From Pseudomonadota bacterium (GTDB lineage Bacteria; Myxococcota; JACRCW01; JAFGSX01), in NCBI GenBank assembly GCA_043821645.1, contig JBDRCO010000076.1, forward strand, positions 96,001 to 160,000: a stretch of DNA of 64,000 nucleotides. The letters run 5' to 3'. Below the pieces are notes generated by a model. That model was not told where the DNA came from and made no database searches. It was given only the letters and a program-made list of their open reading frames with translations. The position numbers and the translations under genes are program-made. Positions 27,916-35,594 of this stretch are shown here, one piece after another; within the stretch, counting starts at the first letter, position 1; every line of letters begins with the position of its first letter.

Positions 27916-29643
27916 GTGGTGCGATTTCTGGCGGCCCTGGTGGTGCTGCTGACGTCCAACCTGGCGTGGTCGGCGCCAGTGCGCGTGGTCATCCTGAGCT
28001 TCGAGGGTCCCTCGAGTGGCGGGGCCGAGCTTGCGGACGCTGTCGAGCTCGAACTCGAGCTGGCCGAAGGCGTGGTCCTGGTGCCCCGGCGCCCCGTCGA
28101 GAAGCGACTGCGCCGCGGACGCGACCGGCTCTCGGCCGATTCGGTGAGTTCGGCCCTGCGCAGCTCCGAGGCGGATCTTGCGCTGACCGGGCAGGGGCGG
28201 GATAGCCGCGATGGTCCGGTCATCGATATCCGGGCGTACACACGGGATGGGCAGATGGTGGTGAACGAGGTGTTCACCCTGACTTCCGACGAACCGGACG
28301 CGGATACCCTGGCACCCCTCATCGCCGATTCCCTGCGCGAGGCGGTGGCCAGCGGGTTGCGTGAAGTGCGCCCCAGAGCCGAGCCCGAAGAGGAGCCTGC
28401 CGTGGCCCGGAGCACGGCGCGAAGCGATGACGACCTCTTCGTCGATGACGCCGAACTCGAGGGCCGGAGGCCGGTGACGGAAGCGCCTCCCAGGGACAGC
28501 TCGCGGGACAGTTCGCGCGATGGTGACCGGGGAGGGCGCAGGCTCGACGACGATGCCGGCACAGACCGCGGCGGCCGGCCGGTGATCACGGAGCAACCGG
28601 AGCCCGAGCGCTCCCGCAGTGGCTGGGGTGACCACTACCGCGACGAGGACCAAGGGGACGACCGTGCGGGCCGCGACAACCCAGGTCGCGATCGTGACCG
28701 GAGTTCGCGCCGTGATGATCCCGGGGACCAGGATCGGAGGCGCGATGAGCGCGACGACCGCGATCGGGGGCGGCGACGCCTGCTGGATGAGGGCGAGGAA
28801 GACTGGGACCGCCGCGTCATCGCACCCGTCCGGCGTGAGGAACCGCGCCCCCGGGTGGGTGACATCGACGCTGGCACAGACAGTGGTGAGCGCACGGGTG
28901 CCCGGGCACTCCTCCCCTACGTGGCGGTGGCTGCTGCCTTCGAGCCGCTGTACTGGAACTACGCCGTGGAGGCTGCCGCGGGCCGCAGCCGCGTGGACTG
29001 GAGCCCACTGTCTCCCCTGGCGGGTGGATCCTTGCGCCTCGAGGTGTGGCCCATCCCCTACGCCGGTGTCGACGCCCAGGCCCGCTTTGGCAAGGTGCAG
29101 GTTGACCTGACAGGCATCCCGGGACTCAACGAGAAGGCCATCGAGATCTATTTCTACGAGGCCCAGCTCCACCTGCGCGGGCAGTATCTGCTCGACGCGA
29201 CCTGGCCCGGCTTCGCCGTCGGAGCCCGGCTGGGCTACCGCTTCCTCATGGCCGACACCGCGCCGCAGACACCCTTCACCGTGGTGCCAGGCTACACCGC
29301 CCACATGCTCGCGCCTGGCGTCGACATACGCCTTCCGTTTCATCCCCAGTACGCCGTGCTCATGGCGAGCGCCGAGGTGGTGCCCTTCGCGCTGTACACC
29401 GAGGCGCCGGATGAACCCGGCCAACCCGGCAGCGCCTCGCTCTTTGGCTGGCGGGTGGACGCACTGTTTCGCAGCACCATCGCCTACGGCATCTTCGTCG
29501 AGCTGAGATTGTTCTACGAGGAGTTCTACGTCACCTACGCGGGAGCAGGAACCCGGACCGACGCCGGTGGGGGCGCGTTCGCCGACGGCAAGGTGACCAC
29601 GGGGCTGCGCGGTCTGTCCCTCGGCGCCGGATGGTCGTATTGA
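27916..29643 (+). CDS. Exported protein: N-terminal alpha/beta domain, Arg/Asp-rich linker, probable C-terminal outer-membrane beta-barrel
   Basis: Signal peptide (AWS|AP), RD-rich region ~28490-28830, amphipathic aromatic beta strands ending GAGWSY. Confidence 0.65.
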   Translation: MVRFLAALVVLLTSNLAWSAPVRVVILSFEGPSSGGAELADAVELELELAEGVVLVPRRPVEKRLRRGRDRLSADSVSSALRSSEADLALTGQGRDSRDGPVIDIRAYTRDGQMVVNEVFTLTSDEPDADTLAPLIADSLREAVASGLREVRPRAEPEEEPAVARSTARSDDDLFVDDAELEGRRPVTEAPPRDSSRDSSRDGDRGGRRLDDDAGTDRGGRPVITEQPEPERSRSGWGDHYRDEDQGDDRAGRDNPGRDRDRSSRRDDPGDQDRRRDERDDRDRGRRRLLDEGEEDWDRRVIAPVRREEPRPRVGDIDAGTDSGERTGARALLPYVAVAAAFEPLYWNYAVEAAAGRSRVDWSPLSPLAGGSLRLEVWPIPYAGVDAQARFGKVQVDLTGIPGLNEKAIEIYFYEAQLHLRGQYLLDATWPGFAVGARLGYRFLMADTAPQTPFTVVPGYTAHMLAPGVDIRLPFHPQYAVLMASAEVVPFALYTEAPDEPGQPGSASLFGWRVDALFRSTIAYGIFVELRLFYEEFYVTYAGAGTRTDAGGGAFADGKVTTGLRGLSLGAGWSY

Positions 29644-32600
29644 GCAGCCTCTGGTCCGAGTTCCCGGTGCGACGTCCCGTGGCCGTGGTCATGGCGACGA
29701 CGGCCGTGCTGGTGTTCGGGCTGGTCTCGTACGCGCGCCTGCCCCTGGCGCTGTTTCCGGAGCTGACCTATCCCACCCTGACCATTCGCACCAGCTACCC
29801 CGGTGCCGCGCCCGAGGAGGTCGAGGAGGCGGTGGTCCGACCCATCGAGGAGCTGGTGGCGACGGTGGATGGCCTGGTGCGCATGCGCTCGGCGGCGCGG
29901 GCCGACGGTGCCGACGTGGTGCTCGAGTTTGGCTGGGGCTGGTCGATGGTGAACGCAGCCCAGGACGTGCGCGAGCGCATCGACGTGCTGCAGTTGCCCG
30001 AGGGTGTGCAGCGGCCCTTGCTGCTTCGCTACGACCCCTCGCTGGATCCCATCCTGCGCGTGGGCCTACTGGCCGAGGCCGGTAGCCTGTCCCTGGGAGA
30101 GCTGCGGGATTATGCGGATCAGCACCTCCGCCGCGAACTGGAACGCGTGCCTGGCGTGGCCTCGGTCTCGGTCCTCGGTGGCGAGGAGCGCGAGGTCGAA
30201 GTGGCGCTGGACAGCGCCCGTCTGACCGCGGTGGGCCTGACCGCGGCGCAGGTCAGTGCGCGCCTCAAGGCCGAGAACATCAACGTTGCGGGTGGCGATC
30301 TGCGCGAGGGCAACGCCCAGTACCTGGTGCGCACCCTGCACCAGCTGCGCAGTCTCGACGCGATCCGCGACGTGGTCCTGCTTCGTCGCGACGAGGCCTA
30401 CGTGCGGCTTGGCGACGTCGCCACGGTGGCGCTGGTGGCCAGGCGACCGACACACCGTGCGCGCTTCGCTGGCCGCGAGGGGGTGGAGCTGGCGGTGTTC
30501 AAGGAGGCCGACGCCAACATCGTGCAGACAGCCCGGGCCGTGCGCACCAGGCTCTCCGTCGACGAGAACGAGACCGGTGCAGAGCGGCCCTCGTCGCGCG
30601 TTGCCGCCGCCAAGGCGAAAGGCAAGAGCGCGCGGGCGCGCCGCGGCAAGGTGCAGGCGTCCCAGGGCGTCGAGCTGCCCGGCGGCGTCCGGGTCGTGGT
30701 GCTCACCGATCAGAGCCGCTTCATCGAGGCGGCGCTGAGCGAGGTGCGGCAGGCCGCGTGGACAGGTGGGCTGCTTGCCATGCTGATCCTCTACCTCTTC
30801 CTGCGCACCCTGCGCGCCACCCTGATCACGGCCGTGGCCATCCCGGTCTCGGTGGTGGTGACCTTTGCCCCGCTGTCCCTCGCCGGGGTAAGCCTCAACA
30901 TCATGAGTCTGGGAGGGCTCGCCCTGGGCATTGGCATGCTCGTCGACAACGCGGTGGTGGTGCTGGAGTCCATCGCCCGCTGCCGCGAGGAGGGCGACAG
31001 CCTGGCGCGGGCCGCGGTGCGAGGGACGAGCGAGGTGGGAGGGGCGGTCGCGGCCTCGACGCTGACCACGGTCGCGGTGTTTGCCCCCATGGTCTTCGTC
31101 GAGGGCGTGGCAGGCCAGGTGTTCGGCGACCTGGCGCTCAGCGTGGTGTCCTCGCTGCTGGCCTCGCTGGCTGTCGCCCTGACCCTGATGCCCATGCTGG
31201 CCTCGCGCGATGTCGACGCACAGGGTGTCGCGGCCGGGACGCGTCATCCTCGCGAGGCGGCGCGCCGGCTCGTCTCCGGGTGCACGCAGCCCTGGCGCAG
31301 ACATCGTCGCTGGTGGCACTGGCTGCTGGTCCTGCCCTATCTGCTGCTGCGGACCGCAGCCCTGGCCGCATTCTCGACGGTGGGATGGCTGCTCTTCACG
31401 CAGTACTGGCTGGCGGTGAAAGCCGGGCGTGCAAGCCTGCGCGTCCTGGGTGGGATGGAAGGTCGCATCGGGATCCTGCTCTTCTCGCCCTTTGACCGGG
31501 GCTATCTCCTCCTCGACCGCACCCTGCAGGCGACCCTGCGCCAGAGCTTTTTCCGTCCGTGGCTGGTGCTCGGGCCGACGCTGGTGCTCACGACCCTGGC
31601 TCTGTTCGCGCTGCCCTCGCTGGGCTCCAGCCTGGTTCCCGACGTCAACCGGGGCCTGTTTGATATCCGTGTCAGCTTCCCTGTGGGCACGCCTCTGGAC
31701 CAGACACTGCGCCAGCTGGAGCCAGTGGAAAGGATCCTGGCGGCACGTCCCGAAGTTGCGCTTCTGTCCACTTTCGCAGGCGTGTCCGACGAGCTCTGGC
31801 AACAGAGCAGCGAGGGTGAGCACACGGCCCAGGTTCGCGTCCAGCTCAGGCCGGGGAACAAGGTCCTGGCCCGAGAAGCGCAGATCATGGACCTGGCGCG
31901 CTCGGCCCTGGCGCAGATTCCTGAGGTCCAGGTGCGCCTCGAGCGGCCTCCCTTGTTCAGCTTCGCAGCCCCGGTCGAGGTCCAGATCACCGGTGTCGAC
32001 ATCGAGCCCCTGCAGCAGGCGACAGTGCTCGTGTTGCAGACCCTGCGCAGCCTCCCCACGCTCACCGACATCGAGTCGAGTGCAGCCGCTGGCTTACCCG
32101 AGGTTCACGTCGAGCTGCGCCAGGCCTCCCTGGCCCAGCTCGGGCTCGACGCCGAGACTGTCGCCCAGACCGTGCGCGATCAGATTCACGGCCGCGACGC
32201 CTCGCTGTACCGCCCGGCGCGGAGTACTGGCGATCGTTTCGACATCGTGGTGCGCGGCGACCTGGGTCCGCTGCCACGCGTGCGTGAGCTTGCGGGTATT
32301 CCGGTGTCTCACGTCGACGGTGTGGCGGTCCCACTGGGAGCCGTGGCCGAGCTCCGCCACGGGCTGGGACCGGTCGAGGTGCAGCATCTTGACGGCATTC
32401 GCGGCGTCATTCTCCAGGCGGGACTCGCCGAGGACGTGGACCTGGCACGCGCTGCCACCTCGATCAGGGACGCGGTGGCTGGGCTCGCGCTCCCCGTGGG
32501 TGTCGACGTGCGCGTTGCGGGGCAAGATGTCGAGCGCGCGCAGGCCATGCGTTCGCTTCAGCTGGCCCTGGCCCTCGCGGTGTTCCTGGTCTTCGCGGTC

Positions 32601-33053
32601 CTTGCCTCCCAGTTCGAGTCCGTGCGCCTGCCTCTCCTGATCCTGTCCACGGTGCCGCTGGGTCTGGTGGGTGCCGTGCTGGGGCTCGCGATCTCCGGCA
32701 CACCACTGTCCATCCTGGCGCTCATCGGCGGCATCACCCTGGTCGGCATCGTCGTCAACAACGCCATCGTGCTCCTGGATCGCGTGCAGCGCGAGCAGCG
32801 CGCAGGTGTGGCACTGGACGAGGCGCTATGTCGTGCTGCCAGCCTGCGGCTGCGACCCATTCTGATGACCTCGCTGACCACCATCGTGGGTCTGCTGCCC
32901 ATGGCCCTGAGTCGAGGTGAGGGGGCCGAGCTGCGCGCTCCCATCGCGATCACGCTGATCTCGGGCTTGCTGGTGAGCACGCTGCTGACCTTGATCGTGG
33001 TGCCGGTGCTGGTGCGTCTGACCAGCCCGCGGAGCCGGAGCATGGTGGCGTGA
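29631..33053 (+). CDS. RND efflux permease (AcrB/AcrD/AcrF family)
   Basis: YPGAAPEEVE, GMLVDNAVVVLE, GIVVNNAIVL, RLRPILMT. Confidence 0.93.
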   Translation: MVVLSSLWSEFPVRRPVAVVMATTAVLVFGLVSYARLPLALFPELTYPTLTIRTSYPGAAPEEVEEAVVRPIEELVATVDGLVRMRSAARADGADVVLEFGWGWSMVNAAQDVRERIDVLQLPEGVQRPLLLRYDPSLDPILRVGLLAEAGSLSLGELRDYADQHLRRELERVPGVASVSVLGGEEREVEVALDSARLTAVGLTAAQVSARLKAENINVAGGDLREGNAQYLVRTLHQLRSLDAIRDVVLLRRDEAYVRLGDVATVALVARRPTHRARFAGREGVELAVFKEADANIVQTARAVRTRLSVDENETGAERPSSRVAAAKAKGKSARARRGKVQASQGVELPGGVRVVVLTDQSRFIEAALSEVRQAAWTGGLLAMLILYLFLRTLRATLITAVAIPVSVVVTFAPLSLAGVSLNIMSLGGLALGIGMLVDNAVVVLESIARCREEGDSLARAAVRGTSEVGGAVAASTLTTVAVFAPMVFVEGVAGQVFGDLALSVVSSLLASLAVALTLMPMLASRDVDAQGVAAGTRHPREAARRLVSGCTQPWRRHRRWWHWLLVLPYLLLRTAALAAFSTVGWLLFTQYWLAVKAGRASLRVLGGMEGRIGILLFSPFDRGYLLLDRTLQATLRQSFFRPWLVLGPTLVLTTLALFALPSLGSSLVPDVNRGLFDIRVSFPVGTPLDQTLRQLEPVERILAARPEVALLSTFAGVSDELWQQSSEGEHTAQVRVQLRPGNKVLAREAQIMDLARSALAQIPEVQVRLERPPLFSFAAPVEVQITGVDIEPLQQATVLVLQTLRSLPTLTDIESSAAAGLPEVHVELRQASLAQLGLDAETVAQTVRDQIHGRDASLYRPARSTGDRFDIVVRGDLGPLPRVRELAGIPVSHVDGVAVPLGAVAELRHGLGPVEVQHLDGIRGVILQAGLAEDVDLARAATSIRDAVAGLALPVGVDVRVAGQDVERAQAMRSLQLALALAVFLVFAVLASQFESVRLPLLILSTVPLGLVGAVLGLAISGTPLSILALIGGITLVGIVVNNAIVLLDRVQREQRAGVALDEALCRAASLRLRPILMTSLTTIVGLLPMALSRGEGAELRAPIAITLISGLLVSTLLTLIVVPVLVRLTSPRSRSMVA

Positions 33054-33820
33054 CAGCGCCAGCACAGGTTGCTGTGGACTGGACTGAGAACGCTGTGCTG
33101 GGTGGCCGCGTGGTCGTGGCCCAGGACCGTCGCGGCTACCGCTACAACGTCGACGCGCTGTGGCTGGTGCGGCACTGCGTGGGTGAGGCGCGCGGTCGTG
33201 TCGTGGATCTGGGCGCGGGCAGTGGCGTGATCGGACTGTGCCTGGGTGCCCGGGTCGGTGTCGACGAGGTGGTCCTGGTGGAGCGCCAGGCCGCCCTTGT
33301 GCGGTGCGCCCGGCGCAGCATCGAGCTCAGCGCGCCGCGTTGCCCCGTCCGCATCCTGGAGAAGGATCTGCGCCAGCTCACGGCAGCCGAGGTGGGCGCT
33401 CCCGCCGACCTCGTGGTCTGCAATCCGCCTTTTCATGACGTCACGCGCTCGCGGCCAGCCGCGAACCCGCAACTGGACCAGGCGCGCCGCGCCTTGCATG
33501 GCGACGTCCATGACTTTGTTCGCGCAGCCCGCCGGCTGATGGGTGCCGAGAGCTGGCTGGGGGTTGTCTACCCTGCGGCACGGCGCGGCGAATTGCTCGA
33601 GGCCCTGCGCGCTTCTGGCTTGAGCGCGGGCCAGTGGCGTGTGGTCCAGGCTCGACCGAAGCGACCGCCGCGCCTGATCCTCGTCCTGGTCCGGCCAGGG
33701 TCGACGGGCGACTTCGACGAGCTGGAACCGTGGATAGAGCAGGACAGCGACGGCTCCGAATCGAGCCTCGCGCGCTCGCTCCGAGATGCCTCGTGGCTGG
33801 ACCAACGATCCCTCCCCTGA
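33050..33820 (+). CDS. tRNA1(Val) m6A37 methyltransferase-like SAM-dependent methyltransferase
   Basis: Q...GYRYNVDA, VDLGAGSG, VCNPPF. Confidence 0.8.
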   Translation: MTAPAQVAVDWTENAVLGGRVVVAQDRRGYRYNVDALWLVRHCVGEARGRVVDLGAGSGVIGLCLGARVGVDEVVLVERQAALVRCARRSIELSAPRCPVRILEKDLRQLTAAEVGAPADLVVCNPPFHDVTRSRPAANPQLDQARRALHGDVHDFVRAARRLMGAESWLGVVYPAARRGELLEALRASGLSAGQWRVVQARPKRPPRLILVLVRPGSTGDFDELEPWIEQDSDGSESSLARSLRDASWLDQRSLP

Positions 33821-33894: not shown

Positions 33895-33922
33895 GCGTGG
33901 GACTGCGACATAGGAGGTTGTC

Positions 33923-34426
33923 ATGGACGACAAGCAGATGCGCCAGAAGATAGATCAGGCACTCGGTGCGCTGGAGCAGCGCCTGCGCATGCGGGGCCGG
34001 GTCAAGACCGCCGCCGCTGGCGCCACGGCCGGCCTGATGATGGCCCTGGATGCCTGCGTCAAGATTGTCGATCCGCAGCCGGTGTATGGCGTCCAGGTGG
34101 ATGCGACGCAACAGGATGGGGCCAGGGACGCGAGCGGTTCCGATCTGGTGGTGCTCTATGGCATCCAGGATGCGGGCCCGACGGACCTGTCCATGGGCGA
34201 GATGAGCACCCTCTACGGGGTGATGACCGACGCCACGTTTGACGCCGGCCCGGCGCCCGACGTGGACCTGGGTGAGATGGGTGTGCTCTACGGGGTCATG
34301 ACCGACGCCACGGTGCAGGACGTGGACCTCGGGGAGATGAGTGTTCTTTACGGCATCCAGCAGCCTGACGGCGGCGACGAGGACGCGAACGTCGAGGATG
34401 CCGAGACCACGGAAGACGCAAGTTGA
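33923..34426 (+). CDS. Lipoprotein-like protein with five (L/V)YG repeats; candidate splicease/RiPP-type precursor
   Basis: AGGAGG SD; charged helix aa1-28, hydrophobic stretch ending LDAC (C45); PVYGV, VLYGI, TLYGV, VLYGV, VLYGI. Confidence 0.75.
   Translation: MDDKQMRQKIDQALGALEQRLRMRGRVKTAAAGATAGLMMALDACVKIVDPQPVYGVQVDATQQDGARDASGSDLVVLYGIQDAGPTDLSMGEMSTLYGVMTDATFDAGPAPDVDLGEMGVLYGVMTDATVQDVDLGEMSVLYGIQQPDGGDEDANVEDAETTEDAS
34183..34360 (+). repeat. Internal tandem repeat (last two units 60 bp apart) encoding D(V)DLGEMxxLYG(V/I)
   Basis: gacgtggacctgggtgagatgggtgtgctctacggg vs gacgtggacctcggggagatgagtgttctttacggc; earlier unit ggcgagatgagcaccctctacggggtgatgaccgacgccacg. Confidence 0.8.
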
Positions 34427-34469: not shown

Positions 34470-35594
34470 ATGCGTCTGATGGATGTCGCGTTCGGGCTGC
34501 TGGCGCTGACTGTCCCGCTGCTAGGTTGCCCCGAAGAGGCCATCGTGCCTTCGGGCAGCGACGGTGGTGCGCGGGGAGTGCTGATCCTTGGCGATGGCGC
34601 GGTTTTACTGGGCGACGGCGCGGTGGTGCCGGTCGATGGAGGCTATGACCTCGGCGACGGCGCCATGGTCTTGCCTGACGGGGCCGTGGTGCCTGTCCCC
34701 GACGCCGGCGTGGCGACCGGGGATGCAGGGCCCGCCCTTGCGACCTGCGACGATACGGCTGCAGGTCTGGCTGGCTGCCAGTGCTCGGATGGCATCGACC
34801 AGCCCTGCGATGGCCATCCCAATGGCGATGGCTTCATCGACGAGTATGACATCTTCTGTGCGGGACCTTTTGACAATGACGAGTGCTCCTGGGCCACGGG
34901 CATCCCTGGTGACAATCGCAGCGCCTCGCACGGTGACAGGGAGTGTTTCTTCGACGGCAACTCAGGTCTGGGAAACGACGACGAGTGCTTCATGTTCGTG
35001 CCGCCGGGCTGTGACTGCTACGGGTGCTGCGCGTTTGACATCAATGGGGACGACGTCAAGGAAGAGGTGCGCCTGGGTGGAGCCTGCGAACGCTTCGTGG
35101 TGACCGGGACACCCCAGGCGGGGCAGCTCGGAGGGGCCTGCCTCGGTGGAGGAACCTGCAGCGGAACCCTGCTGTGTGTCACGGATACCGGGGGCGGTTC
35201 TTTCTGCGCGCCTTGCGAGCCCTGCGCCAACTTCGGCGGAACGCAGTGCAACGAGACCACGGGGGAGGGGTGCTGCTGGAATGTCTGCGACGAAGCGGCT
35301 GGTGAGATTTGCTTCGGCGACGAGCCGCCGCCGCTGTCACCCTACGACGCAGGTTCTTCAGTCACGGATAGCAGCACGGCCACGGGCACGGACTCCGGCA
35401 GCAGCACGGTCCACGACGGCTCGTCCTCGAGCAGCGATGCTGCGACCACGACCCGCGACGCCAGCACGACAGGGAACGATGCGAGCTGGCCCGGCGATCC
35501 GCGGTGCAGCGATCTCCCCTACTGCGGGCCAGATGGTCCCTGCCCCACCGGCACCTTCTGCTACTTCGCCTGCTGCTATCCACTGCCTGGGTAG
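34470..35594 (+). CDS. Cys-rich lipoprotein
   Basis: Lipobox LLGC; L(G/P)DGA(V/M) repeats; about 30 further Cys; Ser/Thr/Asp linker. Confidence 0.8.
   Translation: MRLMDVAFGLLALTVPLLGCPEEAIVPSGSDGGARGVLILGDGAVLLGDGAVVPVDGGYDLGDGAMVLPDGAVVPVPDAGVATGDAGPALATCDDTAAGLAGCQCSDGIDQPCDGHPNGDGFIDEYDIFCAGPFDNDECSWATGIPGDNRSASHGDRECFFDGNSGLGNDDECFMFVPPGCDCYGCCAFDINGDDVKEEVRLGGACERFVVTGTPQAGQLGGACLGGGTCSGTLLCVTDTGGGSFCAPCEPCANFGGTQCNETTGEGCCWNVCDEAAGEICFGDEPPPLSPYDAGSSVTDSSTATGTDSGSSTVHDGSSSSSDAATTTRDASTTGNDASWPGDPRCSDLPYCGPDGPCPTGTFCYFACCYPLPG

Follow-up and report, generated by a model that had tools for sequence, protein, structure and literature searches.

Can a small protein be the substrate of a splicease whose gene lies elsewhere in the genome? 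This question is raised by a gene at positions 33923..34426 (+) of a 64,000-nucleotide window, the whole stretch of DNA analysed, from contig JBDRCO010000076.1 (here C76) of assembly GCA_043821645.1. The coding sequence, taken from the open reading frame listing and including the stop codon, specifies 167 residues, and each of its five tyrosines precedes a glycine (55 in VYGV, 79 in LYGI, 98 and 123 in LYGV, 143 in LYGI). PlpX-type radical S-adenosylmethionine (SAM) enzymes with a SPASM domain are described as acting on Nif11-type precursors, from whose XYG sites they excise a tyramine equivalent (PMC10849128, PMC11002830), and a preliminary description of the locus had seen in the protein a membrane-anchored substrate of such an enzyme. 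Sequence analysis, as far as it can reach, supports that interpretation, and none of the sequence-based conditions named in that description as able to refute it did so when examined. We put the probability at roughly 0.6 that the protein, referred to below as the target, is a trans-encoded, exported precursor of a spliceotide-like protein and the substrate of a splicease-like enzyme.

The candidate enzyme, its precursors and the shared leader

The genome contains 13 SPASM-domain matches, and 0/13 lie on contig C76, which agrees with the earlier observation that the window itself holds no SPASM enzyme. When all genome frames were scanned for dense [VLIMAT]YG[VIAM] motifs, just two were returned, namely the target and a frame beside a SPASM gene on contig C101. 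This SPASM gene (C101:3631-4758) encodes a 375-residue radical SAM/SPASM protein, and its CxxxCxxC and SPASM cysteines are invariant within its alignment. It scores 300.5 bits against the NCBIfam family TIGR04103 ('nif11-class peptide radical SAM maturase 3'), below the cut-off of 725, and 296 bits against a second family, TIGR03913 (cut-off 592), with the next family at 156 bits. We take TIGR04103 to be the same as IPR026482, an entry named for PlpX. The C101 protein is the only one among the 13 SPASM matches to score splicease-like, and no second copy of it was found in the genome at E<=1e-30. Two of the other 12 have a radical SAM family match at E<=1e-40, one TIGR04133-like (374 bits, on contig C44) and one mycofactocin-maturase-like, and a SPASM protein of 1765 residues matches an alpha-amylase family only. 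A homologue of the PlpX-like radical SAM/SPASM enzymes is present in this genome, at the level of homologue rather than equivalog, and it provides a candidate for the maturase that had been predicted to act in trans. A splicease-like protein was likewise sought in a relative bearing a homologue of the target (genome G001), and is present there as well as in the window's own genome (G000).

Directly 3′ of the C101 enzyme gene are three tandem small precursor genes, such that the enzyme and three precursors of 60-64 residues together occupy C101:3631-5430 (L006/L013/L105). The precursors start with a helix of the target type (MTEREMRTKIDSVL..., MNDRSMRDRIDHVL...), proceed to RIAPVKCDKNPEAPEC, the CDKNPEAPEC motif, and finish with 2-3 xYG[VI] sites and YGIGF or YGVDPGGG C-termini. 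Two of the three were scanned against NCBIfam, with no match at E<=0.1. Similarly, in G001 an enzyme 78% identical to the C101 enzyme has four such precursor genes in tandem after it, and this genome also encodes, beyond its unfused enzyme, one fused splicease-like enzyme of 824 residues. The C101 cluster further includes a methyltransferase-domain gene, an OmpA-family gene and two genes that belong to no family; neither a transporter nor a peptidase gene turned up within 14 kb of the cluster, and no PlpY-like Y protein was seen in it. Some 5 kb from the enzyme, at C101:9899-12568 (-) (L105), is a gene for a secreted, trypsin-like serine protease of 888 residues that contains four metal-binding repeats of MopE type. 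It is possible that this protease is the target or partner of an inhibitor, and we regard the proximity as suggestive and not as evidence.

The connection between the target and this enzyme lies in the leader. Residues 1-24 of the target (MDDKQMRQKIDQALGALEQRLRMR; 33923..33994, +) form a helix common to the cis precursors, which we propose as an enzyme-binding and activation element. A 24-residue profile built from 21 leaders was run on 107,506 six-frame segments of the genome and matched exactly five: the target, its paralogue on contig C60 and the three peptides encoded in cis, with E values from 1e-7 to 1e-11 and the next segment at 2.3. Because circularity was to be avoided, two partial profiles were also built. 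Among segments outside the training set, a profile from the seven cis leaders alone placed the target (E 0.0074) and the C60 paralogue (0.011) at the top, with the next unrelated segment at 0.28. The second, drawn from 12 leaders of lipoprotein type in foreign genomes, matched all three cis peptides (E 2e-6 to 2.5e-3) as well as the target and its C60 paralogue, with the next segment at 1.7. The helix is also common to the four precursors of G001. These comparisons support the view that the charged helix of the target is a leader shared with the three YG peptides next to the C101 enzyme.

The C101 enzyme and the target were folded together, from alignments of 9 and 14 rows respectively, with SAM and three 4Fe-4S clusters as ligands. 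The predicted complex scored 0.66 (0.65, 0.66 and 0.67 in separate runs) while the best control reached 0.01; that mark was attained by 58 of 80 solved complexes and by 2 of 110 mismatched pairs. The runs have at least 41% of their contacts in common, and the target is predicted to be disordered, with a predicted local distance difference test (pLDDT) value of 39-41. Two regions of the target make up the confident part of the predicted interface: a single face of the helix (residues 1, 3, 6-7, 9-10, 13-14, 17-18 and 21), with the conserved M6, I10, L14 and L17 among them, and residues 51-59 (PQPVYGVQV), which are set against barrel residues near CxxxCxxC. In binary systems without a Y protein, the leader helix is described as binding the enzyme at the position of the Y-protein helix, and structure predictions there put the XYG motif in the active site (PMC11414181). 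As far as that description goes, the predicted docking matches the binary-splicease picture of a leader helix on the enzyme and XYG in the active site. A search of the PDB returned no splicease structure, the nearest solved chains being SkfB and PqqE. As a model, the predicted complex supports binding of the target by the enzyme.

Relatives of the enzyme indicate what its substrates usually look like. Species genomes were scanned using the enzyme alignment, and 80 loci were kept. The four cyanobacterial relatives that were scored, 38-42% identical to the C101 enzyme, exceed the TIGR04103 cut-off (810-830 vs 725 bits), and at six cyanobacterial loci precursors with [LM]YG[VI] sites adjoin the enzyme. 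These precursors match the Nif11 leader model in 6/6 cases and lie above its cut-off in 3/6. Because passing enzymes are paired here with Nif11-type [LM]YG[VI] precursors, members of TIGR04103 show the published spliceotide arrangement; a scan with the cyanobacterial enzymes gave 80 best loci, at identities of 73% or more, and Pleurocapsa PlpX was not one of them. A quick maximum likelihood tree (LG+G4) of 87 enzymes and 2 outgroups placed a 42-row clade, with the cyanobacterial (TIGR04103) members and the zinc-ribbon type, as sister to a 45-row clade with the C101 enzyme (99 and 97 by the Shimodaira-Hasegawa-like approximate likelihood ratio test, SH-aLRT). Given its place in the sister clade, the C101 enzyme is a relative, not a member, of TIGR04103.

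Within this lineage, 15 of the 87 enzymes have a C-terminal extension in which a hydrophobic segment is followed by a lipobox Cys of canonical form (e.g. LAGC, GGC) and an acidic tail. The fused tails carry 1-12 YG sites, and 15/15 fused enzymes fall in the 45-row clade. Many tails at the fused loci (L015, L023, L030, L031 and 11 further) bear CCxC(D/E)YG motifs. At L047-L050, also in the 45-row clade, proteins with an N-terminal helix (e.g. MKEIEMRARLDRLLE), a lipobox and Tyr repeats are encoded directly upstream of the enzyme, and their repeats read LYMAP, LYSAP or PPYMAP, with Met or Ser after Tyr, not Gly. At L068, L088 and L089, in Myxococcota of the 42-row clade, proteins with a zinc ribbon, a lipobox and xYG[AGS]P motifs adjoin the enzyme. 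Archaeal relatives, 44% identical, occur in Methanosarcina records (L073, L078) beside small proteins ending PLYGIIPPYGVLPK or PLYGIVRPLYGVPLK. Since fused and adjacent relatives both show it, an exported, Cys-anchored, acidic Tyr-repeat chain appears to be the usual substrate design of the enzyme lineage. The target fits this design in its sequence, and its tie to the enzyme would come only via the leader. Since relatives' substrates have Met, Ser or Ala after Tyr, the reaction in the clade of the C101 enzyme may differ or need no Gly.

The target gene, its family and its putative export signal

That the target is a real gene is confirmed. A Shine-Dalgarno-like AGGAGG (33912..33917, +, by sequence reading) lies 5 nucleotides upstream of the ATG, and because it precedes this codon, and homologues also start there, M1 is taken as the start. 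GC content at codon positions 1, 2 and 3 is 0.73/0.42/0.83, and neighbouring genes are alike. The overlapping frame on the opposite strand, of 229 residues, has a third-position GC content (GC3) of 0.71, compared with 0.83 for the target. No promoter-like or terminator-like site was found in a scan around the gene, and scans against Pfam and NCBIfam returned no recognised family (NCBIfam at E<=1).

Several points of the preliminary description concern the layout of the protein and were confirmed on inspection. All five tyrosines do sit in xYG motifs, each of the form [VL]YG[VI]. By motif reading and the family alignment, site 1 is V54-Y55-G56 (34082..34090, +), inside PQPVYGVQVDA, and site 2 is L78-Y79-G80 (34154..34162, +), in DLVVLYGI. 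Site 3, L97-Y98-G99 (34211..34219, +), lies within a repeat unit at 34179-34237; site 4, L122-Y123-G124 (34286..34294, +), belongs to a unit at 34254-34312 that is 78% identical to the preceding one; and site 5, L142-Y143-G144 (34346..34354, +), is associated with a unit at 34303-34353 that is 78% identical to 34243-34293. The tandem units are 59 and 51 nucleotides long with spacings of 75 and 60 nucleotides, and their L-Y-G codons vary synonymously among copies (CTC/CTT, TAT/TAC, GGC/GGG), so that repeat comparison bears out an origin of the later units by tandem duplication with LYG kept. Tandem Repeats Finder reported no array in the region at a score of at least 30. When the 122 residues downstream of Cys45 were shuffled, Gly followed every Tyr in 2 of 100,000 shuffles; sites 3-5, being located in diverged tandem copies, are not independent of one another. 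These downstream residues are 21% Asp plus Glu, and the chain ends, on sequence reading, in an acidic tail (residues 145-167; 34355..34423, +).

Between leader and repeats the sequence contains, as had been described, the hydrophobic stretch ending in LDAC that follows the charged helix. A basic stretch, R20-K28 (33980..34006, +), Arg-rich in the family alignment, would be the n-region of a putative internal signal, and an Ala/Gly-rich hydrophobic stretch, T29-L42 (34007..34048, +), found in 15/15 family members, would be its h-region or a membrane anchor. Mean Kyte-Doolittle hydropathy is 1.27 across the 15 residues preceding Cys45. The lipobox-like L-D-A-C (34046..34057, +; Cys45 codon at 34055-34057) holds the single Cys of the protein (ALDAC), after the basic and then the hydrophobic stretch. 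Leu at -3, Ala at -1 and the Cys fit a lipobox, and position -2 is Asp. A Cys follows the hydrophobic stretch in 15/15 family members, of which 13 match a relaxed [LIVMFA]-x-[AGS]-C and 2 a strict pattern of PROSITE type (PS51257), [LVI][ASTVI][GAS]C. Canonical lipoboxes occur in the C60 paralogue and in the fused enzyme relatives, and the genome has 3 matches to Lgt (PF01790) and 2 to LspA (PF01252). With Asp at -2 and the Cys as far in as residue 45, lipidation of the target is uncertain. We estimate at about even odds that the segment is an internal lipoprotein signal; it could alternatively be an uncleaved membrane anchor.

An exhaustive HMMER search of 1.84 billion representative proteins gave 15 matches at E<=1e-3, and 13 of these are small (78-208 residues) with the same layout as the target. 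Two large repeat proteins (P0010, P0011) were set aside as not of the family, their match being confined to the acidic repeat region. Homologues are 42-60% identical with a conserved start, and in the 14-row family alignment the opening M-[ND]-[DE]-x-x-M-R-x-x-[IV]-D-x-x-L is conserved, as is the Cys after the hydrophobic stretch. Conservation of Tyr-Gly among homologues, the lack of which the preliminary description had named as refuting, is high at the first site, where P-x-Y-G-V-E-V-D-A, including Y55 and G56, is at least 90% conserved. Across the 15 family members 57 of 80 tyrosines precede Gly, and the others precede Ala, Pro, Ser, Met, Glu or Thr. The distant member P0014 is an exception, with three LYMAP and no YG.

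A protein query of 41 genomes (G000, the window's own, and 40 relatives) gave matches only in G000 and G001, the latter being the sole genome of the same family as G000 and carrying a target homologue. In the window's own genome, the search for other small YG lipoproteins with a similar helix turned up the C60 paralogue (C60:13574-13885, -; L011 1486..1812), a protein of 108 residues that shares the leader, has a canonical lipobox (LLAGC) and carries 3/5 Tyr in YG; it is also unlinked to the C101 enzyme. A weak match to target residues 41-115 (E 2.4e-4, 36% identity) at C3:290156-290395 (+) (L012) falls in a frame of 1176 residues and is probably an acidic low-complexity region. A search with a 6-row alignment found 2 loci in metagenome contigs and 1 in genome contigs, the latter coding for the protein also encoded at L010.

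Around the five target-subfamily loci, including L112 and L113, no conserved neighbours were found. Just upstream of the target (window 29631..33820, +) is a gene for an AcrB-type resistance-nodulation-division (RND) transporter of 1140 residues, with a stop that overlaps the start of a TrmN/PrmC-like small methyltransferase gene; directly downstream (34470..35594, +) is a gene for a Cys-rich protein of 374 residues with the lipoprotein signal LLGC and no Pfam or NCBIfam family. No link of the upstream methyltransferase, the RND pump or the downstream Cys-rich lipoprotein to the target was found, and the Cys-rich lipoproteins beside the target and beside the C60 paralogue have no detectable kinship (E 0.32).

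A proposed pathway and its competitors

In the reading that we favour, the helix of residues 1-24 would recruit the genome's single splicease-like radical SAM/SPASM enzyme (C101:3631-4758), which would also act on the three small, soluble YG peptides of its own cluster. Working in the cytoplasm, this enzyme would thread the [VL]YG[VI] sites into its active site and modify the tyrosines. Most likely, we infer, each site would lose a tyramine equivalent (C8H9NO, 135.06 Da) and be left with an alpha-keto-beta-valine or -leucine residue. The segment after the helix, basic and then hydrophobic, would next serve as an internal Sec signal, and the Lgt/LspA lipoprotein pathway would cleave before Cys45, with leader and signal lost in a single cut. 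The product would be a membrane-tethered acidic chain of 122 residues with up to five ketoamide sites. It would probably be a tethered protease inhibitor, working outside the cytoplasm.

A wider proposal can be offered tentatively. The position of the leader helix before a lipoprotein signal raises the possibility of one splicease with two product lines, soluble cis peptides and unlinked lipoproteins, with signal peptidase II (SPII) acting as leader peptidase. This ribosomal modified-peptide pathway would then borrow its export, leader removal and lipidation entirely from the general lipoprotein machinery, and the lipid-anchored chain with five ketoamide warheads would be a membrane-tethered, multivalent protease inhibitor.

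Several observations weigh against a spliced, exported target. The C101 enzyme is far under the TIGR04103 cut-off (300 vs 725 bits) and scores nearly equally to TIGR03913; no characterised enzyme was identified within its 45-row clade; and the cis substrates of its nearest relatives have LYMAP, YS or YA in place of YG. A splicease-like enzyme was found near target-subfamily genes at 0/5 loci (the window, L011, L010/L111, L112 and L113). The target lipobox is non-canonical, with Asp at -2, Cys at residue 45 and the strict pattern in 2/15 members. The calibration of the complex score did not extend to custom alignments or riding ligands, and the co-occurrence of enzyme and target in two genomes rests on close kin.

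Some of these observations would suit an alternative in which enzyme and substrate are the same and the tyrosines undergo other chemistry, such as side-chain cross-linking, hydroxylation or epimerisation, with no excision of tyramine. The C101 enzyme does belong to a clade apart from that of TIGR04103 and falls under every curated cut-off, and its relatives' substrates place Tyr before Met, Ser or Ala, which makes Tyr, not Tyr-Gly, the constant across the clade. We nevertheless regard this alternative as unlikely, given that TIGR04103 and TIGR03913 outscore all other radical SAM/SPASM families by about 145 bits for this enzyme, that precursors of both clades share the [LMV]YG[VI] context with splice sites described as proven (PMC10533398, PMC11626197), and that the target itself is 5/5 YG. 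It is more improbable that no modification takes place and that the target is simply a small acidic protein of the envelope, bitopic or lipid-anchored, its helix a cytoplasmic module and its YG a structural repeat motif. Such a protein could well be encoded by a gene that stands alone without conserved neighbours and be predicted as disordered (pLDDT 39-41), as the target is. The helix, however, occurs in just 5 genome frames, 3 of them directly after a radical SAM enzyme, lipobox Tyr-motif tails are fused or adjacent to the enzyme family across many lineages, and the complex prediction passes its controls.

The genome also holds a second radical SAM-lipoprotein system, at C44:270-2806 (-) (L108), where a TIGR04133-like enzyme (374 bits, cut-off 425) is flanked by a lipoprotein with CYGMP straight after its lipobox and by another lipoprotein. 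Here is a radical SAM/SPASM enzyme that adjoins, and is paired with, a lipoprotein of its own, and the target might be imagined as a further substrate. This seems very improbable, in that the C44 lipoprotein lacks the leader helix, the leader profile gives nothing on C44, the target is matched by no NCBIfam family at E<=1, and its leader matches the C101 peptides. Finally, we give practically no credence to the notion that the target is a chance open frame in GC-rich DNA. The overlapping opposite frame of 229 residues and the lack of a promoter-like or terminator-like site are what such a frame might show, but GC3 is 0.83 vs 0.71, the ribosome-binding site is strong, and homologues 42-60% identical share the conserved start. 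Substrate status with tyramine excision by the C101 enzyme remains the reading that we prefer.

Relation to known systems

If this reading is correct, the case suggests that splicease chemistry is used on exported, membrane-anchored proteins, and that substrates may be scattered through a genome and findable by a 24-residue leader alone. Cluster-based genome mining would therefore under-count substrates. Removal of the leader by signal peptidase II offers a simple explanation for its loss, and up to -675 Da would be expected on one small protein, the target. Spliceotides are described as cluster-encoded peptides with native products and natural roles still unclear (PMC9811515). Published accounts give a loss of 135.06 Da at MYG and LYG sites and describe protease inhibition by the products (PMC11626197), and MYG and LYG are reported there and elsewhere to be spliced by PlpX, RcsX and RasX (PMC10533398, PMC11626197). 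Our literature search found no paper joining 'spliceotide' with 'lipoprotein', though the primary survey (Scott et al. 2022, Chem) lay outside this search and may cover such substrates; the terms 'signal peptidase' and 'lipoprotein' are absent from a 2023 review of leader peptidases.

The nearest published architecture is that of the binary systems of Rheinheimera. Like RhaX/RhaA, RcsX/RcsA and RasX/RasA as described (PMC11414181, PMC11626197), the C101 cluster has no PlpY-like partner gene, a leader helix is predicted to bind the enzyme, and the sites are of the LYG/MYG type; the C101 cis precursors also have two Cys, as do RcsA and RasA, a likeness drawn from the published description. Unlike these systems, the C101 enzyme has 300 bits to TIGR04103 and falls in the sister clade, and the target lies on another contig, with a signal and lipobox between leader and core and five sites in an acidic repeat. 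The type I system PlpX/PlpY/PlpA of Pleurocapsa sp. PCC 7319, with Nif11- or nitrile-hydratase-like leaders, shares the XYG motif and the radical SAM/SPASM superfamily, and TIGR04103 is the nearest curated family. In contrast to it, the target has no match to a Nif11 or nitrile hydratase leader peptide (NHLP) leader, the C101 cluster showed no Y protein, and the substrate would be exported.

Two further kinds of system combine a radical SAM/SPASM enzyme with a lipoprotein. The TIGR04133/TIGR04134 pairs, hypothetical equivalogs in NCBIfam, resemble the present case in joining such an enzyme to a lipoprotein with YG near the lipobox, but they involve another enzyme family (156 bits for the C101 enzyme), have no leader helix and are arranged in cis. 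The fused or adjacent lipobox and Tyr-repeat systems of Myxococcota come from the same enzyme clade and have the same hydrophobic segment, Cys and acidic Tyr-motif tail; L047-L050 also have, like the target, a related N-terminal helix. They differ in that the C101 enzyme is unfused, its cis peptides are small and non-exported, and its lipoprotein-type substrates are unlinked, and for this reason recognition of the target must rest on the shared helix alone. What would be new here, for a kind of peptide that is itself known, is the unlinked substrate, the leader found on soluble as well as exported substrates and, by implication, a role for SPII as leader peptidase.

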